Shown: piece after piece, positions 20,849 to 58,169 of the stretch
How positions within the stretch are numbered: position 1 is the first letter of the stretch
How the letters are laid out: every line of letters begins with the position of its first letter
Assembly: GCA_973895155.1 (NCBI GenBank)
Contig: OZ316896.1
Location: forward strand, 10,241,525-10,305,524
Origin: Marsupella aquatica
Lineage: Eukaryota > Plantae > Marchantiophyta
Direction: 5' to 3'
Length of the DNA: 64,000 nucleotides
The notes under the pieces: generated by a model
What the model was told of the DNA's origin: nothing
Databases searched by the model: none
What the model saw: only the letters and a program-made list of their open reading frames with translations
Translations under genes and position numbers: made by a program

Positions 20849-23699
20849 AAATTAAAGGTACGCTACAGACCATCACTTGTAAGCAAACTGGTCAGGCAAA
20901 ATAACAACCAAAGGAGGTGAGAACTTGTCACCCAAAGGTAGGATTGAGAGTGACTAAGTGGGTATAGCAAGTGTAGCTTGAGATTGAGCTACACTCCAGT
21001 TTAGCAAACTACACTAAAGGACCAATCTCCAAACGCATGAGAAAACTCAGGTTTTGCAAACTGCACTGATCATCAAAATTTATGCTAAGTAAGAATTAGA
21101 GTTAATAACATTAATATTGGTTAAAATGATCTTAAGTCCAAACTAAGTAACACTTATCTTTTCATTTGGTTTTTCAGAATAACTTTTTTCCACTTCTGTC
21201 TGATTGTTGGTAAAAAATTGGTGATCTTGTGTTACTGTAACACTAATTCTTGTGTATTTTTCAAAGTACTTTTTCTCCTCTATTTTTCCACTCTTGAAAC
21301 CACAGTAACTCTGTCACCAATTCATGGGTAGAGTCCAAAATGTTTGCTCTCAAATTAGTGTAACACTACTTAGGGTGAACAGTGTACAAATTTTCACAAT
21401 TTCACAGATTTTCAAGAAGCTATACTATCAATCAGGTCTAGGACAGATTTGAACCAAAAGTGGGAGCAACAAACCTGCAAAGCGTGAGGAAATGTTCTCT
21501 CTCTTCTCTGCTCAACCTGTTAGTTTGCTCTGGTCTTGCTTAATTGCTGATCGCTTTCTTGATGTAGGACAACTGTTTTTGTTTAGGTAAAGTTAAGCTC
21601 TTGCTGATACCCTTACATTGTAAAGGGTCTTTGAACTCTGTCCAAAAGTTTAATGTTGCAAAGGAACCGACTTACAGCAAGGAGGATGCAAGCCGGGATG
21701 CAAGCAAGGCAACAATAGCCTGCAGGGTGTCTCAAAGCTTCAATAGCAACTGAATCATGGCTTTGCACAGGGTTGTGTAAACGTTTTTTCTGAAGTCAGT
21801 GTCTTTTTTCACTATCCCGTACAGTGACTTTTTCTCCCTAACCTTAATTACTCCTAAACTCCATCAATTATATTTGAAGCTTTTAGACTCCCTAGAGAAA
21901 CGGCAAGAAAGGTGGAAACAGAAAAGTCCCACAATGTTACAACTCCAAAATTGAAAAGTTTTCCCTCTTCCGGTTCTGTTTCCTTCTTATGTGGAACAAA
22001 GCTCGAGTATGTGTAGCGCTGAGGTCCAGCATGGACAAGTTGCCTACTGTAGTTTATTTGCAGTATTGTGACTCAATATGTACATAAGTGACACATTTTG
22101 GGCAAACCTTGCTTGCCCCCGCAATTCGAGGAGGGAGGGAACCCCTTTTTGCACAAACCATCTATGACAGTCAGTTACAAATAACCCCATTAATCATTAG
22201 CTATATATTCATGGTTGGATAAAACACAGAGAAGTAGGATTGGACCGTATTTGAATTTCATATTGAAGATTCCCAATGCAAGGAATTGAACCAGTGGTTT
22301 GCAAAGTATGTATATCATTTGCACACGGAAGCAAATGGCCTTGAAGAAGTCGTCAAAGGGGGGCTCCACGCCAGTCTCAATCTACAGATTTGGTTCCCTC
22401 ATGCTGTTGGTTAATATCCAGAAATCATTGAGTACATATTGGTAGATACCTTCGCAACATCCACTCTGGTCCAATCCACTACCAAATTGATAGTTAGCAT
22501 GTCTCTGGTACTTTTGGAAGGCAAAATTTTGACTTCGTCCCTTACATACGAAAGTACTCGGTCAGTACTATCAGATTTAATGGACGTGCATACTAATTAA
22601 GTCAGTGACACTCTTATCCATGTTGCCAAAAAGGTGCAATCGATGGGCCTTAATTCGACAGCTCCCGTCTAAACCAATGCGTATTGAATTCTGATGGATC
22701 CACCACTAGCAAAATTCTTGGGACGCTTGGGATGAGATAAAAATAGTCGCAGTGAAAGTGAGCTTGCCAGCACTTGTTCCAGTTGACCGTTCACTCGTTG
22801 GGTCTGTGGTACTTGGGCACAGTTCCTCCAACACTTTTGGTTTCTTTCGTGACTTTCCCTTCATTTCTTCACGACAATCTAGTAAGTTATGGAGAGTAAG
22901 GATACAGGAGTAAGAATCGTAATTTGCCCTACGTCCACGGCCTCGAGTTTGCAAGTCTCCTTTGGCAGTGAATGGTTTCTGGAATGCTACTCCTTGTTGT
23001 GAACTTGCCAATCTCCTGACGTGCGGAAGCGAATCTGAGTTCCTGTACTCAGTTCACTACCTTGTCGGTGCTATCCCTCGGTCAAAGAACCGACACCTAT
23101 AATACGATGTCCAAGGTGCTGAATATTACGTGCACTGCATCCACCGATCCCGATCAACACTCATGTGCCACCAGTTATTGATTTATCAGCATCCAGTGAT
23201 TTTCTGGATTTCAACCATGAACACAAGGGGACTGAATGTTGCTGCGGACATTCTCTGCGTTTTATCCGACCCGAAATGTAGCAAAGGATTAAGAAGGTTA
23301 TTTGTATGATTTCCATCTCTGTAATAAGATGCTAGCTTTGTACACAAGGAGGTTCCCTCCCGCCCTAAGTTAAAGGGGCACACACGAGTTTTGCCCAACA
23401 TGTGGCACTAATGTACATGATACTAGTCACAATTATATGCGAAGTGTCCTCCAGTGGGTGACTTGTCTATGCTGGACCTCAGAGCTCCACATACTCGAGC
23501 TTCGTTCCACCGAGCCAGTGTCGATGTCGAGATGACTTTTGATCACATGGCAAATTCCAAGAGGACCCGAAAGGATTACACATTACTTGGAGAAAACTAA
23601 GGATCGAAATTAAAGGTAAAAGGGTTTGCTAGGCGATCTGGATGCAGTTGACAACCAGCCGCACTAGAGTATTTCGTCCACAATCCAGTACAATCCCGT

Positions 23700-25225
23700 C
23701 CAAATTAAAGAAGTTCTATGTCTTCTAGCTAACCGACCAAACAATTCCATGGTCTCATGTTCGACATCGTTAGCCTTTGCCGTTTGTTCTTGCTGACGAT
23801 GTGTTGCGTCGGCGTTCACATCATCCATGTTGTATTGCTGGCAACTGCAACTGCAACTGCTTGCTGAAATCATGATACTGCTGCCCGGTGAATTCGAATC
23901 ACGTCCCTTTAGGCACCACAGCTTTGTACTTGTAGATTAGCATCAGCAGGCCTTCGATACTTGAGCCTAATACCGAAACCTTGTGGTTACTTGGAATACC
24001 GAAGCCTTGTGGTTGCAATGGGCGGGCAAATCCGTAAACTCGAAATGAATTTTTTTTATGCACTCGTTGATGCGCTCTCGACGATGCTGTTCAGCCAGCC
24101 TATGTGCATAAGCAGTCCTAGTTCTTTTGCCGGTGCTGGGTTGTTCTGGAAGAAGTTAAGGGGTTCTGGAATTGCATCGAGACTTGGCACTCCCATTCTA
24201 CTTCGATGGCTTTCTCCTCTCCTGCAGCTAGCCGTTTGCTCCGGCAGGCTGGCCTCCCGTGACGGGTTCCTTCTGTCCTCTGGGATCGGACAGAGAGATG
24301 AGCTCTAGCTTGGCTCTGCGCGACTGCAACGTCGATGAAGCACCGAGAATTGCTTCTTGTTGTTAGTGTACACCGACTGCACTCCCATATATTCTGCTTC
24401 GCCTCTCCTCTCCTGCAGCTAGCCGTCTGCTAAGTTTTACCAGTGGCCCCATGCCACCGGCCAGCTAGTACTCTTGCTAATTTTAACAGCAGCCACATCG
24501 GGCCCCGATGCCCCGTCAGCCTGGTACTGTTGCTAATGTTCGACGAGGGCCGGCAAGCGGGTCCATGACCCGTGACTAGTACTCTTGCTAATTTTAGCAC
24601 CAGCCAAGAATTCTCGATTAACACATAGCCCCAACTTATACATGGTAGATGTGAAGTTGGTCTGATGCGGCAACCGTGAGCGGACAGATTTGGAATCTGG
24701 GACCAACAAAGCTGCAACACCAACGAAGCTATTCTGGTGAGCGGACAGATTTGGAAACCGGGAACAACAATTAAAGCTGCAACCCCAACGAATCTATTCT
24801 CGAGACCTCTAACTACAGCTGTACAGCAGGATGGGTCCTCCTACTTCGGAGGGCAAACGCAAAATGCAAGATGAGCACGTACCTTCACACGATGGGGACA
24901 GTAAGGATGATGTTGGACCAGAACCCCGTCCAGAATAGCCCAGAAGTAGGACTGCTGCGGCACATAGGTTGGCCGAAAAGCCTCGTTCGAGAGCCGCATC
25001 AACGGGTGCATTACAAAGTTTCATTTGGAGTTTACAGATTTGGCCGGCCATGATATATTCCAATCACAAGGCTGGTATTAGACTCAGGTATCGAAGGCCT
25101 GCTGATGCTCATCTCTAAATACAAAGCTCTGATGCCTAAAAGGAGGTAAAATTTCCAACACTTCACCGGGCAGCAATATCATGATTTCAGCATGCAGTTG
25201 CAGTTGCCAACAATACAACGTGAGG
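23700..25225. pseudogene. Head-to-head pair of decayed bHLH copies (minus about 23700-24180, plus about 24870-25225)
   Basis: DVNADATHRQQEQTAKANDVEHETMELFG on the minus strand; the plus copy has gtatcgaaggcctgctgatgct, the reverse complement of agcatcagcaggccttcgatac at about 23940-23960. Confidence 0.75.
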
Positions 25226-25239
25226 ATGATGAGCACATT

Positions 25240-27330
25240 GGACGTCAAGGAGCGATCTCCTGCCTGCATTGAAAACCCCACACGATTTCAGGCCAACGAG
25301 GATGCATGGGAGATTTCAGGGACTGGATATAAATTGTAAGTGAAATAAGCAGATGTTACCTAGATCTTCTAATTTAGTTCACGTACCAGGGAGATGACTT
25401 GGTCTTCAAACTAAAAGAACTGCAAGGAATTTGGGAATGCTTGATGCGATGGGATGCGAAGTACGTTCGAGGAACCTAAAACAAATAGCCCTACCGAGAT
25501 GTCAGTCCATCCGGAAAGAAGTTCAGCTAGCAGGATTTTAGTTCCCGAATTGAAACAATTCTGGAACTAATAACAACTTAGTAGAGAACTAAAATAAACA
25601 CGTACTTATCAAAAACACATGTCGACGCTCGTGGAGCCATAAGGCTGCAGTAGAAGCTGCTTTGATTGCTAGAGGAACTCCAGGTGACAGGCCTCAGACC
25701 GGAAACACAATACACAGAGCCGTCGATTATATTGCTGCAAAACGATAATTTCATATAGCTCGGTGAGAACTGTGCATGGTGCCTGTCAGCAATATGAAGG
25801 AAAAGATGAATCCAGGGTTGGTTCAGTACCTTCTCGACGTCATTCCCTCTTTCATTTCTCGACCTACACGAACTTTCAAGTATGGACATTTTCTTACACG
25901 GACTTAATTTCAAGATGCGCGTTACAACGTTGCGGGAATGTAGCCCGGCATCCTGCGCTTTTTCACAGCATCCTCAATAGTTACTTGCCTCGAGGTCTGC
26001 GAATCATAAGATTGATATATTAAGGAATGGAGAGAACAGCGTTTAGAGAACAGTTCTTAACATCAGCAACAACGGCTGTCACGAGAAATTAGGTCCTTAA
26101 GATCGGAACGTAATTATACGACAACGTACCTTCCGCGCGTCTCGATCTCTTGACCTGATCAATTAGTTTTCAAAAACTTACTGGGGTCATCGATCTCTGC
26201 CATAAGAACGTCAGGCTCGGCGGCCTTTTCCACAGCATCAAACAATTCTTATCCTTATTCATCCTTCGCTTCTTGATGGTGATTTGGAAGTGTCGCAACA
26301 ATTTTTGAGTTCCAGTATATATAGCTTCCTCCGCTGCTTACTGTAGCGAGCCTGATCCACAGAAAGGTTCCACAGTGATCTTTATTCTAGGATTCTATGG
26401 CCAGCGTCCACTAAATCCACTTCTAAGTAAACTTGTTTTCTACTCTGGGCATTTTTCAGCTGATCTATCGAATAGTGCAAGTGTGCAGACAAGATGCAAA
26501 CCTTCGCTCAAACGGGTTCGAAGCTAGTTCTTCCGCACGAACGGACCGGACCATAGAGGTACCGCCAGCAGATGTGATTCGATTGAAATTGACATTATTT
26601 TCCGTAAAACAAGCAGAAACTGCTCAAAGAGTACAATCACAAATTAATGAGAATTAAGCATGAAGGCGCAGAAATCGAACTACAATTATACGATTCATGA
26701 AGTTTGTGTTGAATTTTTTCCTGAAACAACTGAATGCAAGGGGTAGAACGAAAGGCGAATGCCAAATTTATTTAGAACGAATGTCAAAAATTCAAGAACG
26801 AATTCATGTTGAGAAGTCAAGACGAATGTCGCCAAGTCAAGATTGAACGAGCATACTCAAGATGCCAGACATTCTCGGCGCCCATGAAAAGGATCCATGA
26901 AATAAATTTCTAGACGACAGGCAGGTCGACCGAGTTACTACAACCTCCTCTTCTATATATATGCATCGAAAATCAAAGAGCTTTTACCATCCATATATGG
27001 TCCCAGTATAGCCCGATGATGAAGTTTGCCAGTGTAGGTGTTCCTTGGAGGCTCCATTTTCATCACTATCATGGCGTATCTATTGCTGAGATAACAGGAC
27101 CATTGGCCGTGAAGCTGAAGATCAAATCGCCTTCTATTGTAATTCGAATTGCAGATCGACGGCCACACAACTCCGCGTCATATCTGCACCGTTCAGAAGG
27201 AACACAACGACGAATGATGGAGAGAAATAAACAAACCATGAATCAGACAATCGCTGACTTCGGAAGTACTTGAGAACACCATGGCGAATAGAATCCTTTG
27301 TACTTAAGCTCGTCAAGAACAGTACCCAAT
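25240..27330 (-). pseudogene. BRCA2: 5'-truncated BRCA2 duplicate
   Basis: GSVYCVSGLRPVTWSSSSNQ (ORF 25578-25913) and colinearity with the 5' copy up to cttaagctcgtcaagaacagta. Confidence 0.85.
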
Positions 27331-28055
27331 GCCAGATTAGAGCTCGTCAACAACAGTCGATCGTCCTATTTAATCTCGACTGCGCAGTAAAACACAGGAG
27401 CTAGCTAGAAGCAGATCGACGTCCAATGATCGGGAAACATGAGCACAGACTGAAAAAACGAGAGCTGCGACTGAACATACGCGCTCGAACACAAGAGAGA
27501 TACCAATTCACGTACAATCTATACCATCAATAGCAGAAATGAAGACTGTGAGAAAGGGGCACTCCATTTAACAACACAACAAAGCGACAGCAGTCCAGAC
27601 GTGATGCAATGCAAACGAGGTGGCGCGGCTTCCGATACACAAAGGGCTGGCCGCGTACGTCCCGCGCGCTTGTCACACTGCACAGCCCGTTAGGCGCTGG
27701 CTCGTAGATTGAATAGATTCTTCGCTGTCTTTGCTGTTCTTGTTGATCACACTTGAATGTGACCACGCATATCTGTAAGTAATGCATGTCCTGTCTGACA
27801 TGTAAACATCGACCCTGACTAGTCCCAACAAGATTTTACTGTCGCTGGTCCAAAGGTAGGGAATCAGCCGGAGGATGAGAAGAGTACAGGAAAACAAGCC
27901 ATGGAAATTGGTTGGAGACCGAAGCACACGAGGCAGTGCCTACTTCACTCTTGAATTTCCTGATCTGATCACCGACCTAGTCACCAGGCACCCATCACGC
28001 CTGCATGAGAGAGTTGTAATCAGCCGGGTAATCAGAATGTCGTCATACTCGTTGC

Positions 28056-28329
28056 TGTTAGAAATCCATGAGCCCAAGAATGTGGAAATGCGATGTGTAT
28101 ATCATTGAGTAGTGAGGGGTTTTATACATGGAGGGCATCCCTTAGATGCCAGGTCAAGTCAAACCAGAATATTGTGTATTCTCTCATGCTACACATTCCT
28201 TCACATGTGCCTATAACATAGTTCACCTCATGGTCTAATTTAAGTCACTAATTTAGGACGGTGGCCCACAACTAAGGACAGTGGCCTACCACTTAGGACG
28301 GTGGCCTACCAATTAAACTTTTTCTAATA
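28056..28329 (-). repeat. copia-2 3' LTR
   Basis: tgttagaaatccatgagccc...ttctaata; contains three taggacggtggcc-like units; matches the 44301-44882 LTR once the MITE is removed. Confidence 0.93.
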
Positions 28330-28357: not shown

Positions 28358-29302
28358 CTAATAAAGCCCTAGCATTTTTCTCAAATAAATGTGTTTGTCT
28401 TTTGGAAGTCCTTTGGTGAGAATGTCCGTTGCCATTTCCTCGGTGGGACAATAGATTACTTCTATTTCACCACTATCAACTAGTTCCCTACTAAAGTGAT
28501 ATTGAATATCGATGTGCTTGCTCCTATCATGAAGCCGAGACGCTTCAAGTAAGCTAAGAGCACTTTGATTATCACAATGAATGACGGCTCTTGCTTGCTG
28601 ATGATGCAAGTCTCCAAGAAGTCTTTTCAACCATACTATCTCAGTGCATGCCTTTGATAAGGCCATGTACTCTGCTTTGGTGCTAGACCCTACAGATTTT
28701 TGCTTTTTGCTTGCCCAACTCACTACTGCACCTGAGAGCATGAAACAATAACCAATCAGAGGTTGATCTTCTTGTGTCAATATCTCCTCCCCAATCAGCA
28801 TCAGTATATCCATGTAAGGGAATAAAAGATTTTGATCTTTTATACACCAAACCCATACTTGATGTGCCCTTCAAGTACCGAAAAATTCGCTTCACAGCCA
28901 TCCAATGCTTTGGACCTGGATTGGACATGAATTGTGCCATTGATCTAACTGCATAGGATAAGTCGGGCCTTGTGCAGATCATAGCCCACATGAGGCTTCC
29001 AACTGCATTCTGGTATGGTCGGGGGTATGGTACACTCTCCATCTGTAACTTTTCATCTTCAGTTTGTGGGCTATCCTCCTTGCTTAGCTTTAAGCCCAAC
29101 TCAACTGGAGTATGCACTGCCTTGCAATTCTCCATGTTGAAAGTGCTTAATTTGTCCAAGATGTATCTCTCTTGAGACATCTTGAGCCAACCCTCTTCTC
29201 TGTTGTGGGAGATTTCCATACCAAGGCAATTATGTATATTGCCTAAGTCACTCATCTCGAATTCCTTCATGAGTGTCGTTTTGACTTCAGCTAATATGTT
29301 GG
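28358..29302 (-). pseudogene. copia-2 RT C-terminus and RNase H (frameshifted)
   Basis: FEMSDLG, YQNAVGSLMWAMICTRPDL, GYTDADWGGD, IHCDNQSA, RSKHIDIQYHF. Confidence 0.93.
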
Positions 29303-30918
29303 AACATGATGTCGGACCTATCGAGAAGGGTGACCACCCTTCTCGTTTTTCATGATCAATTTTTTTTCTAAGGCATGTAAAACCCGATACAAATTGTGCA
29401 TTCCAGAAAAATAGTCATCCATGATTAGGAGGAATGCAAAGATCGATACGGGTATCGACCTTTGCATTTGTAAATTCTTTGGTTATCAGGAATTTACAGA
29501 AATGGTGAAACTGTGCATAACCGCGCAGTAGGCTCTAACTATGGTTAAGTTTAACTAGGGTTAAGCTAGAAATTAACCATAGCTACCTCCAAAAGTATAA
29601 ATATGACTGCCCGCTCATGGAAAAAAGTTTCATTTTTTCAAGTCCTCTTTCACAATCAAGCTCTCACCCAACCCAAAGAAAACCTCCTCTCCATACAGAT
29701 GCGCATTCTGGTCTTAACAGTAAGCTTTCCACTTTCCAAAGCAAACTGTGAGACTCGTATCGTAATCAGCTTTGTAGAAAGCAACTTGCGATACTTGTAT
29801 CGTAAGTTGCATTCAAACCTAAGTTTCAAACCCTCAACAATACAGGTATCGCTTGGTGCATTGAGCCAACTCAATTAGTCTCATGGTGCAGGAGTGAAAA
29901 TACTTCAATCATGGTTTAGATTCTGTCTCTTGAAGATTGTAAAGCCGTTTGCTGCTCATCTCGCAGTTCTTCATATTATGTTGGGGCCCTTATTTTCTCT
30001 TGGGTAGCTGTTGGTCGGATCCGAAAGCCAATAGCGATACTTGTATCACTCTTTGGATTGAGTAGTGTAGATTTAGGACGGACTGCGCTGCAAAGATCAT
30101 TGGACTGGGTCACTCGTGACCTCTAAGGTGGACCTGACAAAACCCCACCTAAACAAACACAAATACTTTGTTCCGTTCGCTTACAAGCAAAAATGTGCCC
30201 AGCAAAAGTTGGGCTCGACAATCTTTTGAGTGCCCAAAGAGTGACGGCCTCGTGTCTATATCCTCTCCCATACAATGTTTCCCATTTTTTCTTGTCTTTG
30301 TGAGAGCTCGTGTGAGAGATTTTGGAAAGGAGCATTGTTTGGCTAGAGAGGAGACTGAGGAGGTGGAGTGGCCTGGCTGATTCAAAAAGAAATAGTTTTA
30401 CCCTGTAGGCAGCACCAGAACAAGTTCTAGAGGTGGCGCAAATGAAGACAGTGCGAACCATGGTTTGTACTGTGAAAAGGATTTGGTCTGCTTCTTGAGT
30501 CATTTCCCTTAGTTGGTTTTGCACAAATAGTTTTTGAGGCATTCCGTGTGGCTTGTGAAAGACATATGAGATAGTCGTATTGCTTGGAGTAGGAGTCTTT
30601 GTGTTTTGTCATCAAAAGAGGAATCGGCGGATGGATTGGAAAGTGTTGACCCAATCCGAAAGCAAATTGCGGTGCTTGTATCTCTCTTGGGATTGAGTCA
30701 TGTTGTTCTCAGAATTAAGCTGAATTCAGTAATCCCAGTTAAAACATCAGAAATTAACTAGAGACTCCATTAGAGCCTGCAATCTTGTATCTGTAGCCCG
30801 ATCGTGGATTCATGGATCCTCTTGGGGGTTTGTAAGGTGTTGGCTTGTTAAGAAAGCAAAGCTTGTTCTCTCGTTCTTCTCTCTCTGCTCAATGGCAACA
30901 TTCCCAAAGAGCGGAGGA

Positions 30919-31633
30919 AGACTTGCAAGTCCCTGGGCCCTAAGCGTTACTAATACAGGGAGGACGTGCGAACATCGCAAGGGTATTTTTAATGTAATGC
31001 AAACTAATTTTTATAATAGTTTTTAAAGTAGGCAACATCCTTGTATATATATTCAGCACAATATTAGTAATAAGGCTCTTATCAAATACATGTCACATTA
31101 ATCTTATGCAAGGGTACCCAAAATGCCAAGTACACGCGTCACTATATGGTTGGCACACATGTCATCACTTCACTTGCACACATGTTCATATAGTAAATCA
31201 GACATTTAATTATTTGTCGTCATAAGGCAAGTTTGGTTTCGTGGGCTTTAGGAACACTGAGAGGATAGTGCAGCCATGCTTGTCTGTATACTACAGGAAG
31301 AACTATAATTCTTTGGTACTAATTTTGTTTAACTATATAAAATATGTACCCTAAACAAAGGGCGTAACATACAAGTCCCCTATGCAAAATAAAGTCTTAT
31401 CTATTTCAGTATGATATTTGCAATTTTAAAAATTCAAGGATGTTTTCAATTCCTTGAAAAACTATATTATAATTTACAAAAGGATAAAATTTAATAGGAA
31501 AAGTTAATATTTTTACATTAACAAGGGGATTTTTTTTGTGAACAAAAATATTAAGAAGGGGTACATGGGGGGTGTCTGTTCTCAGGGGGGTTCACTTTAT
31601 ATAGTAAGAGTGAGGGCCCAGGGTTGCAAGTCT
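30919..31633. repeat. ~33-bp inverted repeat flanking an AT-rich spacer
   Basis: agacttgcaagtccctgggccctaagcgttacta (30919-30952) versus tagtaagagtgagggcccagggttgcaagtct (31602-31633). Confidence 0.75.
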
Positions 31634-32220
31634 GAAGGACTTAGAATTCATCGCTGTCAATTTGGCCATTCCCACAATAACAATCATGACATAGTACTTG
31701 CTCAAATTGATGCAGCCAAAGGGCGACGAAGGAGAGGACAGTGAGTTGATCGTAGTCACCACCGGCAGAGAAGGAGTTGCAGCTTGTCATGTCTGTCAAT
31801 CTATCTTTCCTTTTGTTCCAATTGTTTTGTAAGTTGCTCTTTTGCATCGCTGCGGGCATTGGCGATTCTTCTGCGATTTTGAGTTTTGAGAAGCAGATTA
31901 AGTGATCAAACTGATAGTTTACATTGATTGCCAGTATCGTCGGCCTTTCTTCATTTTTTGAGCTTCCTGAGCTTCAGATTTGACTCACCGGCACTACATG
32001 TCATTGTGCAGATGGACAACGATAGCCTTGACCCTTGCTGGATTAGAACCGCATGAGAATCAATAGCAGCTCCCAACAGACGCCCCTGCTCAAGGTTCCT
32101 AGACCCAGTAGAAAGCAACTTGGATGCCGTATTCAGAAGAAAGCAAAGCGCGATACTTGTATCGCTCGTGGGATTGATCAAGCAGTGTAGATCTCAAATT
32201 TGATCTGCCAAAGGAAAACA

Positions 32221-35200
32221 ATGGAAGGAAGTGCAAGGACAGGGTCTGCTGAGACCGAGAACCTCATGACAACTTTGTGTAATGTGATTTGGACGACAGA
32301 AGATATTTGTGATGAACAAAAGTTTGTGAGGAGACCTTGGTACTTTCGGGATACTCGAATGATGTCCAAGGAAGTAGCTGACTGGGAGACACCCGTTCTT
32401 TGGGTTCAAGACTTAGTGAAGAAAACAGAGAAGATTACACTCTCCTTTGGTCCAGTAATTGGGGTTGCCGCATGTGACTTTAAGAAGGGTCATGGGAAGG
32501 AAAATCTGTCGCTATTGGATTGAGCTTCCTCACAATGTGTGGAAGCAAGGGTTTTGTGGCCCTTGTCGTGGACATGGATTTGTATGATCTCTCAACATTA
32601 GACAAATTTCCCGAAGACCCTATTGTGAAGGAAGTCGCGAGTACAATTGAGATGGAGATCTTCAAGCCTGAGTGGGTTGCTAATGTTGTGGATGATTCGA
32701 GTCCTTTGATGCTGCCGTTTGTCCAAAAAGAGTATAAGAGACTCGTGGGTGAAGAGTTTAAACCCACACGAAGGATCAAAGTAAGGAAGCCAACCATTAG
32801 CAGGAGTGGCGCATCTTCAGTTGCAAAAGGAGTTGATTGTGCTAGTGGGAGCGGGGGACATGGGAAAGGGAATTCCCAAGTAGAAGCTACCATGAGAGTG
32901 ATTCTAGGTGAAGCACCTCAATCTGTAGAGGCAAGCCCAGGCGCTACTGCAAGTGTTGGTCGTGGTCGAGGTCGTGGTCGTGGAAGAGGTCGTGGAAGGG
33001 GAGTTGTGGATGAATTGGTACCTGTCGAGGCAGAGGTTCCATCGCCATCAACTTCACTTGCAAAGAAGAAGAGGACTGGTTGGATTGGAGGCATAGGAGT
33101 AGCTCTAGCTGCAGATTCAAGTGGTGCAATAAGCACTCCAGCTGTGTCAATGCATCAATCCAAAGAACGATTACCCCTTACCTCAGGTCCAACCTCAGCT
33201 GTCGTTAGCATTCCCCTGGTAAGTTTATTTGTCTAGAAAAAATGAATGTTGGGAGCGATACTTGTATCGCGCATTGCATTGAAATAATGAAAATGGTTTG
33301 CATTTTGAATTCTTCTTAAAATTCATTGCAAGCCATGTTATTTTTCAGGGAGATGAGGAAGAAGAGACGCCGTTGGCTTCATTTGAGACAGATGCCATCA
33401 AGGCTGAACTTGCAAAGCTCATGCTTGAACGCAGAGTCCAGAGGACCAGTGTGCTTCTGCATGTCAATAATCTCATTTTTGAAGATGAGGGTGAGAATTC
33501 AACTTTAGTTAGACCTGTAGATCGGCTACATGTAGAGAACATCAAAATGTTGCTCATGAAAAACCCTTCCAACTTCACGGCTCCATTTGTTGTTGTAGTT
33601 GATCCAACAGATTGTCCCACAATTCATGAGTGGGACATTACTAAATCTAGGGTATGGAAGTATCGAGTGATTGGCGGTAATCATGGAGCTCGTGCAAAGG
33701 CTGAACTTTTCAAAATGTATGGAAAGCAAGTGTACGGTGAGATTGAGGCATGGGTTTACTCTGGTCTAACGAGACATGAGATCAGGATGCTGGCTTTCCA
33801 GCATAACTACGACCAGGAGTACCATAAAACCATGACATCGATTGACAAAGTTCGTGCCTGTCACAATATTTTCATGGAAATGAATGTGGGGTCAACTAAA
33901 GAGGTGCGAGAAGCTTGTTGTAAGGAATGTATGCTTGATTACACTCCAGGTGTTCGTGACTCAATGGCCAAACATGACCCTACATTTCAGATTGCCTTTC
34001 GATCTGGGGAGATTTGGGAGCTCCAAGATAAAATTTTCTCTATGTGGCAAAAGTTTGAGATCCTTGGTCAAACAAAGCCAATCGTGGCCAAGCAGCCGTC
34101 AGCAACATCAAAAGGTAAATCAAAAGCTAAACCTAAACCGCTGAGTGCAAGTGAAATCAAAATGAACAAGCTCTCTGGGCATTTCAATTTGAGGGTCTTC
34201 AGAGCTCTCCAGGGGCTTTCCCGAGGGCTTTCCAATCAGGAGCATGTGAAGCGACTCCTAAACAGAGTAATTGGAAAGAAAATCACTCTAGAACAAATGT
34301 TCAAAGAAGGTGAGACACTTAAGAAGTTGGCAAAGGTAAAGAAATTGTTCCTGCAGATTTCTGGTCAAAAAGATTGGGCAACATGCCGGGAAATGTTTCC
34401 CCAGGAAACTGATGTGAAAGTCCTTTCAACTTGGTGCGAAAAGCTCACAGAAGCAGTAAGCACAATGTCCTTATGGCCTTTTGTTTTCAGTTATATATAT
34501 TCAAAGCAAACATTTGAGATATTGAATGCAGGTAGTGTTACTTGTATCACTGGTGGCATTCAAAATTTGTGTTTGGAAATCTTACAAAGAGTTTTGTTTA
34601 ATGTGCAGTTCAAAATCAGTTCAAAGAGGAAGAAAAAAGTCATTTCTGGAAATGAATTTGATGAGGTCGTGGAGGTCGAGATTCCTTCATGCGACATCCC
34701 CTACGTCTTCAAGAACTATGTTCTTGAAGCAATTGAAAAACACAATCAGAGACTGAATATCTCATCAATTGCTACTGCTTCATCTCAACATCAATGGAAG
34801 AATGCAAATGGAGACGCATTCTCATATTCTCTTCATGTTGGAGATATTCGGAAACTAGAAACCTTTCTAGAGCCAAAACATTTCACTTTGGCAATTGCAG
34901 ACATCCCGTACGGTTTCAATGCCCCTGGTTTTCAGTTTGACGAGGAACCTTTCACTGAACAGGATGTAAATGAGATGGTTACTAATTTTGCTAAAATCAC
35001 CACCTCTCCATTGTGGAGGTTTGTTGTGATCCATTCCTTGCAGCAGACAAATAGCGTTATGAGCGCACTTGAGAAGGTTTGCAATTGCGGAGTTGAGGCC
35101 GGTATATGGGAGAAGACAAACATCCATGAGCACCCTTCTGGGCCAAGGCTAGCTTGGGCCTTTGAGAACTGGTCAATTGGTTATTACAGTGAGGATGGAG

Positions 35201-35724
35201 TCCGAAAGAAGGAGATGTACAATTTTGCTCCTGATGAGTCCAAGGTGAACATTGTGAAAGTTCCCTGTGTTACTACAAAGTCTGTGAGTCCATTAGGGTT
35301 TATTGTAAACCCTTTTAAAAAACCAATTGCATTGGGTGATTGGTTTGTTAATCATTTCAGTGAGAAAGGGGACTGGGTGGCAGACCTTTGTTGTGGAACC
35401 GGGTCAACATTGGTGACTGCACTTCTCAACTCTCGGAATGGGTGTGCTGTTGAAAAAGGTGAGACTCAGGTAGAATTTTTGAGGAGTCGGATTATGACAT
35501 TGGAATCTGTTTGGACTCTATACGATGAAGCACAAGTGTCCGGTGAAGGTGGCCAGGGACAAGAAGTCCAGCCTCCGGTTGGTGGGCAGTTGGGAGTCAT
35601 TGGTACTAGCATTTATGTGGATACTGATGACCAGGAGGAGCCTGAAGAAAATGAGCCAAACATTGAAGAAAAGCTACCTAGAACACCGGACGACAGGGAA
35701 CTCAATGATATGTTGTTAGATTAG
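32221..35724 (+). CDS. ParB/Srx-like domain plus beta-class N6-adenine/N4-cytosine DNA methyltransferase fusion; spliced; probable frameshift near 32500
   Basis: ParB-like segment VRPVDRLHVENIK...PFVVVVD...YRVIGGNHGARAKAEL. MTase motifs HVGDIRKL...TLAIADIPYG (motif IV) precede KKPIAL...FSEKGDWVADLCCGTGSTLVTA...GCAVE (motif I), the beta order. A phase-0 GT-AG intron at 33219-33348 fuses ORFs 32520-33236 and 33298-35724; a second in-frame intron is likely at 34456-34608. The N-terminal part has (GR)n and KKKR. Confidence 0.85.
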
Positions 35725-35889
35725 ATGTGTGCAATAACACTATTGAGGATTTATCAAGGCTTTCTATTAATGATTGAGAACCTTGATAAACATATCTCTA
35801 TTTGAGGTTTGAAATGCAATTGGCGATACATGTATCGGATGTAGCATTCCCAACAACATTCCTACCTATCTGCACTTTTCCTACTCTAA

Positions 35890-38696
35890 CTAGTCACAGT
35901 CATCTGCATCAATGATTTCCGTGTCGAGCATTGCTGCTTGGATGATTCGCTTTGTTTGTACTGGAAGCGTGTTGTTTGAGAGTAGTGCAAAATTATATGC
36001 ATAAATTACAGTTTCTGAGAGGCACAATGTGTCCTCAAGTAATTTGTTAGAGGATGCAGCTTTTTCAGGGTAATATTGACCTTCCATAGCAGACCCTTCT
36101 CGAGAATCCATTGTATACCATACAATTTTGATGTTCTCTGGAACATCTTGTACTTTGGATAGAATATCTATGACTTTTGCCATCCAAAATGGTCTGCTGT
36201 TTGGATCCCTATATGCAGCCACGCAAATCATTGCATATTTAGTGTTCACTTCAAGATCTTTGAAGTCTCCCTCGACTGCTTTCTTCTTCCTTGTTCCAGA
36301 GTACATGACTGTTGTTGCACCTGCAATTTTATCTAGCAAGGTTGGCTCTATTTGTGGGGGAAGTGCATTTCTTGGAGTCTCTACTCCAATATTTGATTTT
36401 GGCCACGTCCAATCAAAAACCCATTGTCCTGCCTTCAAGTGGTGTTTAATCACTTCTTTCTGGTTGTCAAAGAAACGGAGCCACCAAAGTTTATCCTCAT
36501 CATCAAAATAATTGAATCCATCTTCAATTGATTTGCGATATTTCTCCAGGACTGCAACATGGTTGCAGAGAAGACGCTCGTCTCCATTGCCTCCGTCATC
36601 ATGTTCATCATTCTCCACTGTTGCTCCGGTTGTAGATTTCAATGCCATTTGTGCAGCAACCCACATGGTAGATGTGGGGATGTATCTAAGGAACTCCACT
36701 GCTTCTCCCCAACTTTGAGTGCTAGAAAGATGCTTTGCGTGAAACAAAGTCGAAGTTCCTCCATTCTCTCCTACAACCCTCTTCATCCTAAATTGCTTTT
36801 GACCACTAATACCATGTAGAGGACACAAAACATGCCCAATACCTCCCATGTCATTGGGTTGGTCTTTATCCGACACAAACTTCTTGAAATCAGCAACCTC
36901 TTCAACAAAAATTATCTCAGCCTTTGGATTGTACGAATCCTTGAGAATGTCTGCAAGACTATCCACCCGAAAAGCTTTTCGCTTATTTAATTTTAAGGAG
37001 AACTTGCTGAACATTTGGTCAATCTGATCATGGGTATGTCCAACCAAAAGAAAACCAACTTTGATCTTTTGGAAAACCCTCATCTCAACAAGCATATTCA
37101 AATATGCCATGAGAAATTTATTTTTATTTTCTCGAGGGGTATTATCAAGTTGTAGATACAACACTGGAGGGAGTGGACCTTCCCAACTATTTAAAATATG
37201 TTGGATCACATGCACTGTCAAGTTGGTGTCATTGTGAATGTTTGGATAATTCAAAAACACTTTTGATGTCAAATGTCCATTGAACACCAAACAACCCACC
37301 ACATGTACCGGAATAAAGTACTTCTCGTCCATGTTTTTGGGGCACCTAGTGAAATGTGGCAACTCAGTCTTTTTTTGATCCATACCATCAATGCAGATCC
37401 CCAAATATTTTTCTGGACTCTTATAGCACTTGCTTCGGTGCTTTGCTAATTTCTCCCTCTCAACTCCTTGTGCTTTCCGATGTTGGTTCAAAAGTGTTGA
37501 ATATTTTCCTGTCAAATGAACGTCAATGTTTTTGTCAATAATAACCGCATCACCAAACCAAACAAGTAAATAATGTAGTACTTAACATCAATCCTTTACT
37601 TATTTAAAGGTAGACACAACTTACGTTTTTCTGCTTCAAGTACTGCTTTGTCGCGAAGTGCTTTGAACTCTGTGCAAGGACCGCATGTGGAGAAGCGACT
37701 CTTTTTTGGAATACGCACCCTGGGGAACTCTTTGTTCCAGATGCGAACAAACCAAGAATATGTGATCTCGGTTTCCTTCCGCACCATAGTATCAGTCTTG
37801 AAAGCATCAAATACTTTAGCTTTCGTCCAATTGTCTGGTAAGTGGAAGATGTCCTTGTTTGGAAGACTTTCAACATTTGACATGAAAAACTCATTCAACC
37901 ATTGAACTAGTGAAAGATGAGTAACCGATTTTTCCTTGCAAAATGTGTCATTTTGAATACGAGAAAACGTATTCCTTGAGATTCTCTGCAGCCGATTATT
38001 TCCAACGGAAAATAATTTCTTGAAACCTTCTCGACAAAAAGATCTCCCGTCAACAATGTAACCGGTTGGACCACCGTGCCCACTTTTCAAACAGCCCCTT
38101 AGAAGTATGTTCTTCTCGGTCGATGATAAGCCATAATAGAAGGTCCGGTGTTTTGTCACTAAATCTAGACCAAAATATCTCAAACACAAATTATCACAAC
38201 ATGGGTACTTAAAAACTTCTTTCATTTTTTTTGTCTTTAAATTTTGATTTGTAACATTATCTTTCCTCACAAGCTTGTCTCTCACTTTCTTGCTAAGCTC
38301 CTTTTGTTTCTCCATACTGTGAAATCCATGGAGTGAATGTTCACTCTCTTGTCTCTCTGCAACTTCCAGAATAGAGCCATTAGTATCTTTTGAGCTACTA
38401 TCATCTGAAGATAGAGTGGGATTTCTCGGATCACTAAAGAGATGACTATAGCTACTCTCGCCCTCATTTGTTTCCAAATATTCTGATACAACTTGTGCAA
38501 TGGCTTGCGACTGTCTATTTTCCTCAACATCTTCCTCCTCACTTGACTCATCAGAAAACACTATTGGACTTCTTGGTTCTCTGTACATAATTCGGACTCC
38601 GCTAAAACTAGTGAGGCCTCGTCTAGCAACTTGAAGACATCTAATTGGCTGTCTAGAAACACTCCTAGTTGCAGAAGTGGGTCTGGTGGTCATCAA
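35890..38696 (-). CDS. DDD/E transposase, Sola1-like, two coding exons (about 900 aa); start uncertain
   Basis: A phase-1 GT-AG intron at 37624-37509 joins the 366-aa and 541-aa ORFs (AEK-R-KYSTLL). Cys clusters CCDNLC...FC and FSTCGPC; catalytic-type motifs ICIDGMDQ, YLQLDNTPRENKN and FLLVGHTHDQIDQMFS. It lies inside TIRs with a 4-bp TSD. Confidence 0.85.
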
Positions 38697-40536
38697 TGGT
38701 GTGTCTTAATTGTTCCCCAAACTTGTATTGTGTACATGAGCGGCTGCCATTGGTCCATTGATTGGAGAAGCATCGAATAATCGTTGTACACATCTCCCCA
38801 CTGCAATTTGAGATTGCGCAGATTCTGGACTTTGTAGTCCGTTGTCTTTGCTGTTGCTGGGAACCAGTTCTCTTTGACGCAATGCAAACGGCGATCCACG
38901 TACCGTTGTGTGTATTGTACCTTGCGTTCTCATGTCTGTCCCAAGAACTATCCTTCGCTGCACCTGTGGCAAAACTAATTCCCTCAAAGGCAATGCAAAT
39001 GGCGATACACGTATCGCTGTTTGCATTCGACCTTCTCTTCTCTCCTCTGGCACCTGTTGGAAACTTGAAGCGTCAATTGGAGATCCCAATCTCGTTGCCG
39101 ATACGTGTATCGTCTTCTTGATTCCTTCACCATACCCAGGGATAGACGGTCTAAATCGACGTCTAGAACCTAAACCTTGGATAGAAAGCTTTTGCATGAC
39201 TCGCTTTCGCTATGGCTCCGGTGGTTTTTTCCCTTAACCAGGCCACTGCCTATAAGTCGCCGGCTCATTCTTCAACAGGCACGCGGCCGAGGGGAGGGAA
39301 TGTTTAGGAGCCGACATTTATCAGGTTTACTAGGTGACACATAGTAAGCCCCAGGTTCTGGTTCAGAACTTCCATCAGAATCAGAGTCCAATATTTCGGG
39401 TACACTCTGTTGAGAAACTGGGAGTAATTTGCAAATGATTTGGCAAACATCGACGACCATGAGGACCACCATTGGGGGAGGACTCAACTGAACTGGAGGG
39501 CGACCACTCTTTAGACATGGCTAACGTATAACTAACTCTATACTGGTGGGCATTCCTGTCACAAAATGCTCTTATGCTCAAAAAACTCAAATAGACGCAT
39601 AACTTTGTGAAACAAAATGGTGCAAAAAACTTAGTCGGCGTTGATGTATTTATAGTTTTTGGTGACCCTGAGCCACGTGGCTACTTCTGACTGGTCAGCC
39701 GCTACACGACAAAATAGATTGGGTGATTAAAAAAGGTTCAAATTAGTGTTTTAACGACAAAATTAATGTACATGTTAAGTGTTTCCTCCGGGGTGGATGC
39801 AATTTTTATTCTATTTGGGATATTGTACTGTGGGTTGCTTTAATCAACCATTGAGACAATTTGGTTCTAGATGCGATACAAGTATCGCTTTTTGCATTTT
39901 GGGGTGATTTTTTCAAATTGGTCCTGTAAAAGGTGCACATATTGTGCTTTGGAGTTATGTACCATAGTTTTGCTGATTCACAATCACTTTTCACGATGGT
40001 TAGGCGGAATGGTTACCATGATTTTGTCACTTAGTTTACTTTTTGGTTAAAAGTAGATCAACTGCGTTGAACTGTGTAGTAAATTTTGGGCAACTATGAT
40101 GTAACTTTTCAAATTGTTGATAGTAAATTTTTTGAAAGGAGAGGTTGAGCTACTTTTGGAGTATATTCTCAAATGATGAATGTGGTTTGCGATACGAGTA
40201 TCGCTAGTTGCTTTCCTTTATATGTTTGGGTTTGGAAGCAAAACTATTTTCCATGTGTACAAGTTGACGGAAAATAAGGATTTTCCATGTTGGAAACAAA
40301 GTTGAACGTTGTCAACAACAAACAGTACATTTCGGAAGTTTAAATATATATAATGAGGTAGTCTGTGGGCATTGCTCACCCCTTCAATGAAATCCCATCT
40401 ACGATACAAAAATGTAACTATTGGGATATTGCGGAATTTTGGATCGCTATTTGTGTCATTTCAACAAAATTGGCGAGAATGAAAAACACCCTTCTCTATG
40501 TGCGGAAATACTTCTCAATTGGTCCGAAATCATGTT

Positions 40537-43500
40537 TTGGTGTCATTGCTTGCAAGTATGCAATCATCAACATATAGAGCTAATATCACAAAGTTTCCTC
40601 CTGACTCATAATAGTACACATTTGAGTCAGCTATGCACTTTCTAAAGCCAATGCTTAACAAGAAAGTGTCAATCCTCTTATACCATAACCTAGAGGATTG
40701 CTTGAGGCCATATAATGCCCTCAATAGGAGACATACCATTTCAGGGTCAAGAATTTTCTCCAACCACTCTAATCCTTCAGGCAACTCCATGTAGATTGGT
40801 TCCGTGAGTATACCATTCAGAAATATTGTCTTCACATCTAAAAGGATGGCCTCAAGGTCATAAAAGACCACCAAGGATAGAATGAGCCTTATAGATGTGA
40901 TTTTCACTACTGGTGAAAAAGTATCCAAGTAATCAACCCCATAGACTTGAGAATAGCCTTTGGCTACAAGTCTAGCTTTGTATCTTGCAATGCTTCCATT
41001 CGGGTTGTACTTCAACTTGAAAACCCACTTGCAGCCCACCGCCTTTCGATTTTGAGGAAGCTTGACTATGGTCCATGTGTTGTTTTTCTTCAATGAGTCT
41101 AACTCATCATTAATGGCTTTCCTCCATTGCTCTGCATCTGGTCTTGTAAGTGCCTCCTTCAAAGAAATAGGTTCCGCCATTCTTGGTCCAGATTCAGTCA
41201 CTAGGGCCACAATGGCTGAATCGGAGTCAAAACCATATCTCCTCGTTGGTATCTTCTTCCTCTTTCCCCTTCCAAATTCAGGTTCTGAGAATTCAACGTG
41301 AGTAGAGGCATCACCTTCTATTGAACCTTCAAATTCATCAAAATGTGTTGCAAATGATTATGTGGACCTGGATCGTGGTAGTGGACTACTTGGTTGTGGT
41401 CCTCTTGAAGTAGATGTGCCTGACATTTCAGTAGCCTCTTCTCTAACATCAGGTGCATTAGCTCCCACTTGAGCTAAAGCCGGTGCTCCCACTGGTGCTA
41501 GTGCTGGTGCTCCCACTGGACCTGGTGCCGGTGCTAGCACTGGTGCTCCCACTGGAGTTGGTGTTGGTGCTAGTGCTATTGGAAGTTCAAATAGCACCGG
41601 ATCATCCAACTCTGAAGTAACTGGGCCTTTTCCACCGGGCTGGTCTTCTTTAAATCGAACATCTCTTGCCACAATCACTTTGCGATCGGTTGTTCGTTGA
41701 ACTCTATAGACATCTCTTGATGTGGAGTCTTCTGGATATCCCAAAAAAATACAATCTTCGGCATGATTGTCAAGCTTCCCTCGATGGTTTTTGTTGATGT
41801 TAAGATGTGCTCTACATCCAAAAACCCTAAGATGTGACAAGTTTGGTTTTCTCCCATACCAAAGCTCATATGGTGTCTTGTCGGCATCTAGTGCTTTTGT
41901 GGGTGTTCGATTTTGAAGATAGTTAGCTGTATGAATAGCTTCCCCCCAATAGGATTGAGATAGACCTGAATGATTCAACAAGGATAGAACTGCCTCCACT
42001 AGTGTTCTATTCTTTCTCTCAGCTACTCCATTTTGTTGAGGAGTCTCTGCAACTATAAATTGCCTTGCAATCCCATATTCCTTGCAAAATAGGTCAAAGG
42101 TTGTCGACTTGTACTCTCCTCCATTGTCAGACCGCAACACCTGAACCTTTTTGCTGGTTTGTGTTCCTGCAAGAACTTTAAACTCTTTGAATTTCTCAAA
42201 GGCTTCTGACTTGTGCCTCAAGAGATATATGGTACAATATCTCGAGAAATCATCAATGAATGTGATGAAGTAGACATAGCCTGAATGAGTGGCAGTGCGA
42301 ACTGGGCCACAAATATCTGAATGAACTAAGGCAAGAAGTTCAGTTGCCTTTGATCTTCCACCCTTTGGATATTTCAACTTTGCAGACTTTGCCTTTGCAC
42401 AGGCTCCGCAATTAGACAAAGAAACTCCATCAAATTTACCAATGCCTTCCACCATGTTGTGGTCTTGCAGTTGTTGCATTCTAGCTTCATTGATGTGGCC
42501 AAGCCTTTTATGCCACATCGCCCCACTTGTTGTGATAGCAATATTTGCACTATGGAGGCTTACAGTTACACCAAGTTTATATAACTTGTTAACAGTAAAG
42601 CAAGTACTAATGATAGAGCCACTTGGACTTTTCAAAGTACATGAACCTTTCTTGATGATAGCCTCTCCTCCTTCTTCATCAAGTTGATTCACTGAAAATA
42701 GGTTCTTTGTGAGACAAGGTAGATGAAGCACCTTGTCCACCATCCTCACTGAACCATCTTGGAGTTTAATGGGAATACTTCCCACTCCAGCAATTTTCAA
42801 GGTCGAATCATCTCCCAAATACACTACTTGGGCATGATCCCAAGCTTTGTATTCCACAAAGCTTTCTCGATGATGCGCCATATGTTGGGTTGCAGCTGTG
42901 TCCACATACCAACTTGAATCTCCTTCATCGAAATTCCCAATTGATGCCACATACAACTTATGTATGACTGAGTTCGCTTGAACCTTCTTGGCATCATTTC
43001 CCTCCTTGGTACCCTTGCTCTACAGTCGCGAATAAAATATCCTTTCCGTTTATAAAAGTGACATTTCATCTTGGAAGCTTTCTCATTCCATGGTTTTTGG
43101 GAGGTGCTAGCCTTCCCAAAATTACTACCTTGTGAGATGGTAGATTTCGACCCTAGCCTTGAGTCAATGTAAAGTGTTGTTGTCAACCCTGCCAAGTCCT
43201 CCATTTTTTGCATCGTTTCCTCTTGCAATAGATATGCAATCAAGGACGGAAGAGTAAGAGTTGTATCCCTCCTTAGAGGAATAATTGCCCCCCTCCAATT
43301 TTGAGGCATGCTCCTCATGAGTACCAATCGTGCATCCTCATCTGACACTGGTGCTCCCGTTGCATTAAGTTGCTCCAAAATTCCCCTTAAAGTATGTACA
43401 TGCTTTATGACGCTTTCTCCTTCCTTCATCTTGAGAGTAGCCAACTTGTCATGAGGATACATCTTGGTTATGGCATCACTTGCTTCAAACATGTTGAGAA

Positions 43501-44300: not shown

Positions 44301-44882
44301 TGTTAGAATCCATGAGCCCAAGAATGTGGAAATGTGGTGTGTATGTCATTGAGTAATGAGGGGTTTTATACACTCAGGGGTCTCACTATATGGGGACCTC
44401 CCCATCGCCTGTGACGTTTTTAGGCCTCGGACCCCCTAAAATGTAAGAAATTTTTTTTATTTTTTTACCCCTATAAAGTTGGAATATTTTTGGAATATTC
44501 TAAAAATTGGATTAAAAAGACCCTAATGTTCTTATAAGTCTCAAAATTGAATTTAAAAGACCCTATTGTTCTTCTACAAAAATTCTTAAGTCTTCCCTTA
44601 GAACCAATAAAATGACCCTATCCTTCGTCGCACGTGATATGCCATTTTTGTGGAAGTGAAACCCCCGAGTTTATACATGGAGGGCATCCCTTGGATGCCA
44701 GGTCAAGTCAAACCAGAATATTGTGTATTCTCGATCTCATGCTACACATTCCCTCACATTTGCCTATAACATAGTTCACCTCATGGTCTAATTTAAGTCA
44801 CTAATTTAGGACGGTGGCCCACAACTAAGGACGGTGGCCTACCACTTAGGACGGTGGCCTACCAATTAAACCTTTTCTAATA
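44301..44882 (-). repeat. copia-2 5' LTR, interrupted by a MITE
   Basis: Matches 28056-28329 on both sides of the insertion. Confidence 0.93.
44373..44669. mobile_element. 297-bp MITE with an 8-bp TSD (hAT-like TSD length)
   Basis: TIRs ctcaggggtctcact and agtgaaacccccgag (13/15); TSD TTTATACA at 44365-44372 and 44670-44677; the sister LTR has a single tttataca at 28121-28128. Confidence 0.9.
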
Positions 44883-48057: not shown

Positions 48058-48772
48058 TAGCAGTTAGAGCAGATAAAGCGACAATGACCAGATTGCACAT
48101 AAGAAAATGAGTTAGCAAGCATAGCAAGACAAATGTGACCCGGCCCTCTCAGCGCCTCTGGCCCGCCAACCTCCACATACATGTACAATCCATGGCTGGA
48201 ATCGGCAGCAAGAACCGATGGCAAGAGCATTCAACTCGTCCTCCAATGCTTCCCGCTCGGCACCCTGTAGGCGCACACAACAATCCATGAATTTAGACCA
48301 AACAACGTCATCAAATGGAGAATGCGACATGATTTATCAACACAAACCAATGCACAAACAAATCTGCAAGCAATAGTGTGACCTGGCCCTCCAACACCTC
48401 CGGCTCGCCAACCTCCAGTCGCGCATCAACAAGGTAATATGCAGCAATGTGAGTAGCCAAATCAATCAATCTCCCGATAGTGAGCCGCTGGCAACACAAA
48501 GTCTACACGACAACTCAAGAGCGCAGTGCACCGGGAGCGCAACACCAATCTACAAATCTATGGAACATCTGCGACATAATGACAAATACCTGAATAGTGA
48601 GCGCCATATAGCTGGCGGCCTCTGGTTGGCATTTGACCTAAGCCGTTCGATTAGCCCGCCCTAGCTCCTTTCAATCGGAGCTGTCCATCAGTTTTCACGA
48701 CCCTGACACAGCACGGCGCTTGGAAGGCCATCCATTCCTCCCGATGTAATCTCCGTCGTTCGTTTTGATCCT

Positions 48773-56500: not shown

Positions 56501-56779
56501 ATGCGAAGTGTCCTCCAGTGGGTGACTTGTCTATGCTGGACCTCAGAGCTCCACATACTCGAGCTTCGTTCCATGGCGGATTAATCCCCGAGCCAGTGTC
56601 GATGTCGAGATGACTTTTGATCACATGGCAAATTCCAAGAGGACCCGAAAGGATTACACATTACTTGGAGAAATCTAATGATCGAAATTAAAGGTAAAAG
56701 GGTTTTCTAGGCGATCTGGATGCAGTTGACAACCAGCCGCACTAGAGTATTTCGTCCACAATCCAGTAAAATCCCGTCC

Positions 56780-58160: not shown

Positions 58161-58169
58161 TGAGCACAT

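Follow-up and report, generated by a model that had tools for sequence, protein, structure and literature searches.

The window analyzed here, a 64,000-nucleotide stretch of Marsupella aquatica (Marchantiophyta; contig OZ316896.1, positions 10,241,525 to 10,305,524), carries a Sola1-like cut-and-paste DNA transposon whose accessory gene joins a ParB/Noc-like domain to a beta-class amino-methyltransferase (Table 1). Our preferred reading, held with slightly better than even confidence, is that the product of this gene binds palindromes dispersed through its own element and methylates that element, probably at adenine N6.

The boundaries of the element emerge from a comparison of the window with four public sequencing runs over positions 28800-41200. 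Three of the four (X1 to X3) contain the empty site, in which position 29298 is joined directly to 40537 and four letters fit either side of the joint; in X1 and X2 a contig also starts exactly at 29303, as would be expected if the element has several flanks. When the element is excised in silico, both flanks join as a single open reverse transcriptase frame of a copia element, the long terminal repeats of which (28121-28329 and 44670-44882, 96% identical) lie on both sides of the insertion. Sola elements are characterized by a 4-bp target site duplication, terminal inverted repeats (TIRs), and a DDD transposase, in the passages of PMC10741241 that define them. Here TTGG stands on either side of the element, in agreement with the empty site, and the TIRs begin with AACATG, comparable to the AAC termini of a related metagenome locus, L041 (AACACC), and of Ectocarpus Sola1-1_Ec32 (AACCG). 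The transposase matches DUF7869 (Pfam E 7e-50) and has three Asp motifs recognized by eye, an assignment made independently of any reference Sola sequence or profile. Its gene lies downstream of the ParB-methylase gene, tail to tail with it, and has one GT-AG intron of 116 nt (37509-37624). The window is recognizable as eukaryotic DNA by its spliceosomal introns, its copia elements, and an exon of BRCA2 repeats. Because TIRs, a target site duplication, and an empty site are all present, the ParB-methylase gene is an accessory gene of a mobile element, almost certainly transposon cargo and not a domesticated host gene; the original prediction of a bacterial-type enzyme adapted to a eukaryotic host is not upheld in this respect. 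A high-depth insert of 89 bp also lies within the element (39198-39286) and is skipped by runs X1 to X3.

We compared the element with 80 related metagenome loci that were found by their methylase, most of them on contigs of 1-6 kb, too short to reveal a neighboring transposase, and many from a few assemblies, so that they are not independent. The transposase is also present in 10 of the 80, tail to tail in four, head to head in four, in tandem in one, and at a contig edge in one. Locus L041 represents an entire element in which TIRs of 37 nt enclose both genes, and its terminus recurs with different flanks in 11 loci; a target duplication was not seen at L041, possibly because the assembly is collapsed there.

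The predicted fusion of ParB and beta-class methyltransferase was recovered in structure models, where both folds were found. The exon 2 model (predicted local distance difference test [pLDDT], 88.6) has ParB and Noc as its best matches (Foldseek E 2.5e-5; Z 10.8), with KorB also among the fold matches. Its N-terminal domain aligns with 7bm8 over 99 residues (Z 10.6; root mean square deviation [rmsd], 2.3 Å), so the ParB/Srx fold that the prediction called for is present, and whole-chain alignments to ParB and Noc extend over 186-193 residues and include both nucleotide- and DNA-binding domains. The second part of exon 2 is likely a helical DNA-binding domain, as judged from the model; the HTH_ParB profile is matched by 2 of 54 family members, below a confident level (best, 3e-4).

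The model of exon 3 (pLDDT 88.3) has CcrM as its best fold match (E 2.5e-16), and the exon 3 profile matches N6-adenine enzymes at 1e-16 to 2e-12, N4CMT at 9e-8, and PvuII at 3e-4. Profile and fold rankings thus agree with the suggestion that DIPY as motif IV lies nearer to N6-adenine than to N4-cytosine enzymes. The permuted order (motif IV before the S-adenosylmethionine [SAM]-binding motif I) and the fold are those of PF01555. DIPY occurs twice in the protein, the second occurrence (AIADIPYG) being motif IV. Across 55 aligned family rows, motif IV takes the form D/N-x-P-Y in 46, including 7 with DPPY that fall in the two outermost tree groups; SPPY occurs in 0 of 55, and membership of the SPPY N4-cytosine writers of the N4CMT/DN4MT1 type was rejected on that ground. 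The QKP motif that precedes motif I reads KKP in the window copy and QKP in both runs compared, and QK is kept in nearly all relatives. The methylase is quite likely active in intact copies, and we lean toward adenine over cytosine as the modified base. Adenine is a lean and not a result because the beta-class methyltransferase domain has switched base specificity repeatedly, according to passages of PMC8885841; the modified base is among our least sure points. A phylogeny proposed with the original prediction was carried out against prokaryote-type rows as a quick tree, which kept 106 of 140 rows (those dropped had too little domain coverage or were more than about 85% alike) and used group labels taken from search score, not taxonomy. 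All 55 family rows fall on one side and 51 prokaryote-type rows on the other, with support of 99, and no donor stands out.

The intact protein would have ∼1067 amino acids by exon arithmetic. Both putative introns of the original gene model are present at their predicted coordinates. The GT and AG of intron 2 occupy the same codon positions in all four close relatives (L001 to L004), whose inserts at this place (352, 254, 287, and 485 nt, respectively) are unrelated, are in no case a multiple of 3, and all contain in-frame stops. Intron 1 ends in a phase 0 CAG acceptor immediately ahead of the conserved stretch of exon 2, and this acceptor is kept in all three relatives that cover it; the donor of intron 1, in low-complexity sequence that is unalignable, is placed only by its match to the consensus. 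Conservation therefore argues for the exon structure and for spliceosomal introns. Exon 1 begins with a domain of ∼190 amino acids (32221-32780; L001:643-1236; L004:390-1010) that is ∼33% identical in L001 and L004; it matched no Pfam family, and Atlas gave only sub-threshold leads. The GR repeat, AKKKR, acidic tail, GGNHGAR, and DIPY are all present where they had been described, and the proposal that the GR repeat and the nuclear localization signal-like AKKKR are host adaptations fails, since both are absent from the two relatives with a complete exon 1. None of the 198 family proteins examined has the GR repeat, the region being missing from most of them. We accordingly rejected both as conserved adaptations. 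A basic, SKRKKK-like patch at the start of exon 3 is kept in all four close relatives and is a better localization candidate than AKKKR.

Candidate target sites are provided by the palindrome CGATACnnGTATCG, which, at up to 2 mismatches, has 14 matches in the window, 13 of them in the element against 0.88 expected. None of these 13 falls in a confirmed exon (the confirmed exons take up 5,921 of 10,533 bp); a possibly coding open frame upstream of the transposase contains three of them. One site is 70 bp upstream of the ATG of the ParB gene, and others are upstream of the transposase. Across L001 to L005, 36 of 36 sites lie outside coding blocks, which cover 71% of bases; the 3′ end of exon 1 was placed by eye in L001 and L004, and past it in L001 the frame stays open and holds one site. 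In 17 of the 44 loci of at least 3.5 kb, a single palindrome occurs three or more times, against 0 of 44 shuffles; shuffled loci never held more than one copy, and five other stretches of the window held at most two. The repeated palindromes differ between relatives: L001 and L002 have CGAGAC arms, L003 and L005 have mixed arms, L004 has CGATGTTTGGATCG, and a second clade has 3-bp-spacer forms with CGATAC or CGATGC. Overall, the family palindromes vary around CGA(T/G)-N6/7-(A/C)TCG, in candidate sites that lie in noncoding DNA, including introns. Other repeated palindromes were seen in distant loci (L059, L060, L075, L079, and L006), namely, TATAGA arms, AATCTGCAGATT hairpins, and TCATGCTAGCATGA. 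In L013, ten palindromes at ∼41-bp spacing form an array upstream of the ParB-methylase gene (L013:599-1032), which we take to resemble plasmid centromere arrays.

We consider it reasonably probable that the ParB domain binds these candidate sites. A ParB dimer would read the two half-sites of a palindrome, and the fused methylase would then mark nearby DNA of cognate copies; control of the element would thus be family-specific and would most likely take the form of resistance to host silencing by 5-methylcytosine (5mC), with an analogy in the escape from silencing conferred by VANC on VANDAL, by other chemistry. A bolder version, which we hold only tentatively, is that a widespread lineage of Sola1 transposons in charophytes and land plants might run its own parS/ParB-like system, in which private palindromes, evolved by each family and seeded through introns and promoters, would load a ParB clamp and N6-methyladenine (6mA) would be laid down along the copies to escape 5mC silencing. 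If true, this would mean that 6mA is written under sequence guidance in plants whose genomes are regarded as lacking abundant 6mA, and it would supply natural protein-site pairs that expose the recognition code.

Several observations weigh against the reading of a palindrome-binding methylase. Two-domain structural alignments of exon 2 are at an rmsd of 9-10 Å, and the DNA-binding part alone (residues 161-326) aligns with 4umk at Z 5.5 and an rmsd of 4.2. The GERRxR motif is GNHGAR here, and the ParB glutamate and both GERR arginines are gone in nearly all members, with G-[NSG]-H-[STG] at the GERR position in most of 49 aligned rows. In motif IV of the methylase, the first proline is replaced in most members, and the motif is eroded in 9 of 55 rows. 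No repeated palindrome was seen in 27 of the 44 longer loci, many of which are mostly coding; L011 and L013 share a predicted recognition region but differ in their dominant palindrome, and L045 holds both. Finally, the loci compared all carry the ParB gene, and the transposase could still be the binder. GERRxR is the phosphate-binding motif of the ParB/Noc/KorB CTPase clamps, and the KorB arginine equivalent to the GERR arginine is required for CTP binding, as passages of PMC11790492 report. Given these KorB data and the replacement of GERRxR throughout the family, canonical CTPase activity is doubtful, in line with the earlier caution that a GGNHGAR signature makes CTP binding uncertain, and CTP-gated sliding is another of our least sure points.

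The palindromes might instead be transposase binding sites, like the subterminal repeats of other DNA transposons, with the ParB-methylase acting without them, an alternative that we regard as rather unlikely. Palindromes do come to within 150 bp of one end of the element and 340 bp of the other, one site is in the transposase intron of L005, and palindrome type and ParB recognition region match imperfectly. Most sites, however, are found inside the element, both introns and the DNA close upstream of the ParB gene included, and in the second clade they cluster between or upstream of the genes and not at termini (ten in L013, five in L051, and one in L041). In addition, inverted-repeat arrays adjoin a ParB gene that is carried with an unrelated EnSpm transposase, as described in parts of 10.1101/2025.02.11.637652.

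A shade less likely again is an action of the palindrome-bound protein as a self-repressor or as a brake on copy number, in the manner of KorB on dispersed operators, with a minor or inactive methylase. This would account for the sites just upstream of the ATG and upstream of the transposase, is in keeping with KorB among the fold matches, and draws on abalone relatives with no methylase match and a sea cucumber relative with an eroded motif IV. In plant members, however, constraint on the methylase matches that on the ParB domain, and motif IV, QKP, and the SAM loop are all retained.

Constraint on the family is also evident between families, where nonsynonymous divergence (pN) is 0.04-0.32 and synonymous divergence (pS) is 0.60-1.0, saturated or nearly so, in both domains. 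The low pN against near-saturated pS indicates purifying selection across families. The window copy itself, by contrast, is an ordinary decaying insertion, since none of the other copies seen shares its frameshift or its damaged QKP motif. A frameshift had been suspected near 32480-32520 as either an inactivating lesion or the true start; it is real and lies at 32500, where four of four public runs carry one extra base relative to the window. It is a lesion of the window copy and not the true start, a candidate that was rejected; L001 and L004 have both frameshift-split pieces in one frame. The four runs also lack 6-bp and 12-bp duplications and the 701-bp insertion of the window. A high-stringency comparison with two runs gave 35 substitution rows, of which 29 were common to both after 6 single-run rows were dropped. 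Nineteen of the 29 give T for C or A for G in the window, and 10 of the 19 sit in a CG or CHG context, which takes in 24% of C in the region. There are 12 changed codons and 3 silent ones in the methylase gene and 8 changed, 1 stop, and 4 silent in the transposase frame, the stop (38706-38708) being possibly outside the coding sequence, for a total of 21 changed codons versus 7 silent. One substitution converts the conserved NPYQKP to NPFKKP; the direction of change was set by outgroups for the QKP motif and the frameshift only. Assembly errors in an intact window copy are an improbable source of these lesions. The frameshift and the QKP change do lie in or beside homopolymer runs, and no run contig carries the version of the window, but the 29 shared substitutions with their C-to-T and G-to-A excess and CG or CHG contexts, the ratio of changed to silent codons, and the two small duplications and miniature inverted-repeat transposable element (MITE) found only in the window speak for decay.

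A full-scan search returned 466 related proteins, and a word-index search with the long open reading frame returned none. The 30 proteins that were looked up comprise 11 from Chara braunii, 5 from Riccia sorocarpa, 3 from Adiantum nelumboides, 1 from Ginkgo biloba, 1 in a sea cucumber-containing cluster, 1 in an abalone cluster, and 8 without an organism. The abalone relatives (P0117, P0275 to P0277) have the ParB part and a weak Tudor-like tail, with no methylase match, and the sea cucumber relative (P0273) keeps both domains, the eroded motif IV being a feature of its cluster. No methylase relatives were found in viral contigs, and phage records gave weak methylase matches only (best E, ∼1e-5), with exon 2 unmatched. 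Prokaryotic ParB_N-methylase fusions have ParB parts that do not match the family profiles, and profile comparison aligned the methylase only; these comparisons therefore point to no direct phage donor. The host might instead have domesticated a horizontally acquired gene for epigenetic writing, on the model of Marchantia DN4MT1 or rotifer N4CMT. This would fit the spliceosomal introns, the purifying selection, and the relatives in annotated Chara, Riccia, Adiantum, and Ginkgo proteomes but is hardly credible for a gene that is enclosed by the TIRs of an element whose empty site was seen, is decaying in the window, lacks SPPY, and has many divergent paralogues per genome (11 of the 30 looked-up proteins are from Chara).

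Table 1. Features of the Sola1-like element and its insertion site, in window coordinates
Feature	Position	Strand	Remarks
Left target site duplication, TTGG, 4 bp	29299..29302		Letters fit either side of the empty-site joint
Sola1-like DNA transposon, 11,234 bp	29303..40536		In reverse transcriptase gene of a copia element; site empty in X1-X3
Left TIR	29303..29328	+	Starts AACATG; 23/26 bases match right end
MITE-like insertion, 701 bp	30923..31623		High depth; 9-bp duplication; missing from other copies seen
Exon 1	32221..33218	+	N-terminal domain and low-complexity linker with GR repeat; window copy lacks one base at 32500
Intron 1, GTAAGT...TTTCAG, 130 nt, phase 0	33219..33348	+	Perfect palindrome inside at 33256-33269
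Exon 2	33349..34455	+	ParB/Noc-like N-terminal domain, then probable helical DNA-binding domain
Intron 2, GTAAGC...GTGCAG, 153 nt, phase 0, in frame	34456..34608	+	Decayed palindrome at 34536 (3 mismatches)
Exon 3	34609..35724	+	Basic patch, beta-class amino-methyltransferase (DIPY, DLCCGTGS, NPFKKP), acidic tail
Transposase gene, DUF7869	35890..38705	-	Three Asp motifs by eye; start not fixed
Right TIR	40511..40536	-	Pairs with left end at 23/26 bases
Right target site duplication, TTGG	40537..40540
13 dispersed palindromes, CGATACnnGTATCG, ≤2 mismatches	29444..40203		9 perfect; all within the element
Palindrome starts	29444, 29749, 29789, 29838, 30035, 32151, 33256, 35824, 38892, 39003, 39099, 39874, 40190

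Elsewhere in the window, a large exon on the reverse strand (3564-5426) has seven BRCA2 (BRC) repeats with a 132-bp period and is probably part of the host BRCA2 gene. Two adjacent frames at 46756-48063 (reverse strand), split by a stop, have the look of a Crypton-type tyrosine recombinase by eye and received no Pfam name. There is also a direct duplication of 6.7 kb (21400-28055 and 54273-61071; 94-97% identity; 33 kb apart) with internal inverted repeats, along with older copies at ∼73%, one of which contains a bHLH-like frame (52906-53556).

The class to which this gene belongs is already in print, as Ectocarpus Sola1-1_Ec32 and Bostrychia Plavaka; what is new here is a plant member of a recently described class, together with its candidate target sites. 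The literature searched, with subscription journals and Repbase outside its coverage, yielded no description of the land-plant elements or their palindromes. ParB-methylase cargo was proposed in 2025, without experiment, to let algal transposons bind and modify themselves, and this locus extends the proposal to plants. With short, family-specific palindromes in noncoding DNA as candidate sites and intact coding copies in public data, the hypothesis becomes directly testable, and the family is a possible local source of 6mA or N4-methylcytosine in plant genomes.

The closest likeness is to the accessory gene of Ectocarpus Sola1-1_Ec32, a comparison made by description and not by sequence. Like the algal accessory protein, the product here joins a ParB-like domain to a PF01555-type methylase and is encoded opposite the transposase. 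For green algae, the Ectocarpus paper cites Iyer 2011. In the passages of PMC12477816 that concern it, the algal element is also Sola1-type with a 4-bp target duplication and AAC termini, its fusion of a ParB-like domain to an N4C/N6A methyltransferase, which has 1104 aa (∼1067 aa here), is encoded on the other strand from the transposase, and the same bind-and-modify hypothesis is put forward; those passages mention no palindromic sites. Unlike the 11.2-kb plant element with its 26-bp TIR, it comes from a brown alga and has 21.5 kb and a 282-bp TIR. Bostrychia Plavaka PAG2/PAG3 likewise combine a transposon-borne ParB-like domain, inverted-repeat arrays beside it, and a PF01555 methylase in the same element, as parts of 10.1101/2025.02.11.637652 describe, but with an EnSpm transposase, with ParB fused to a 2-oxoglutarate oxygenase and the methylase to SET in separate genes, and with tandem arrays where the sites of this family are dispersed, including in introns.

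Among prokaryotic systems, the ParB/Noc/KorB CTPase clamps share the N-terminal fold followed by a helical DNA-binding domain and palindromic sites, which here are candidates (PMC11790492, in the relevant parts), whereas this family lacks GERRxR, is fused to a methylase, and resides in a eukaryotic transposon. The fold and motif order of the methylase are those of beta-class N6-adenine methyltransferases (CcrM, M.BceJIV, M1.HpyAVI, and M.RsrI), and several prokaryote-type matches have the ParB_N plus PF01555 architecture, but identity is ∼20-25% and the ParB parts do not correspond by profile. Rotifer N4CMT (PMC8885841) and Marchantia DN4MT1 (10.1101/2021.02.12.428880) are also eukaryotic beta-class amino-methyltransferases, but they are host genes with SPPY, the passages at hand mention no ParB, and N4CMT has a chromodomain. 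DAM-carrying retrotransposons (10.64898/2026.05.21.726589) provide another case of a transposon-borne prokaryote-type adenine methylase, unlike ours in being retrotransposons; the relevant parts of that source name neither ParB nor Sola and report DAM-LTR as absent from streptophytes. For family-specific control, a parallel is VANC of VANDAL, an element-encoded protein with family-specific motifs in introns, intergenic DNA, and terminal noncoding DNA, although, in the corresponding passages of PMC5735166, VANC is an unrelated protein with nonpalindromic motifs that removes 5mC, and its function was shown experimentally.

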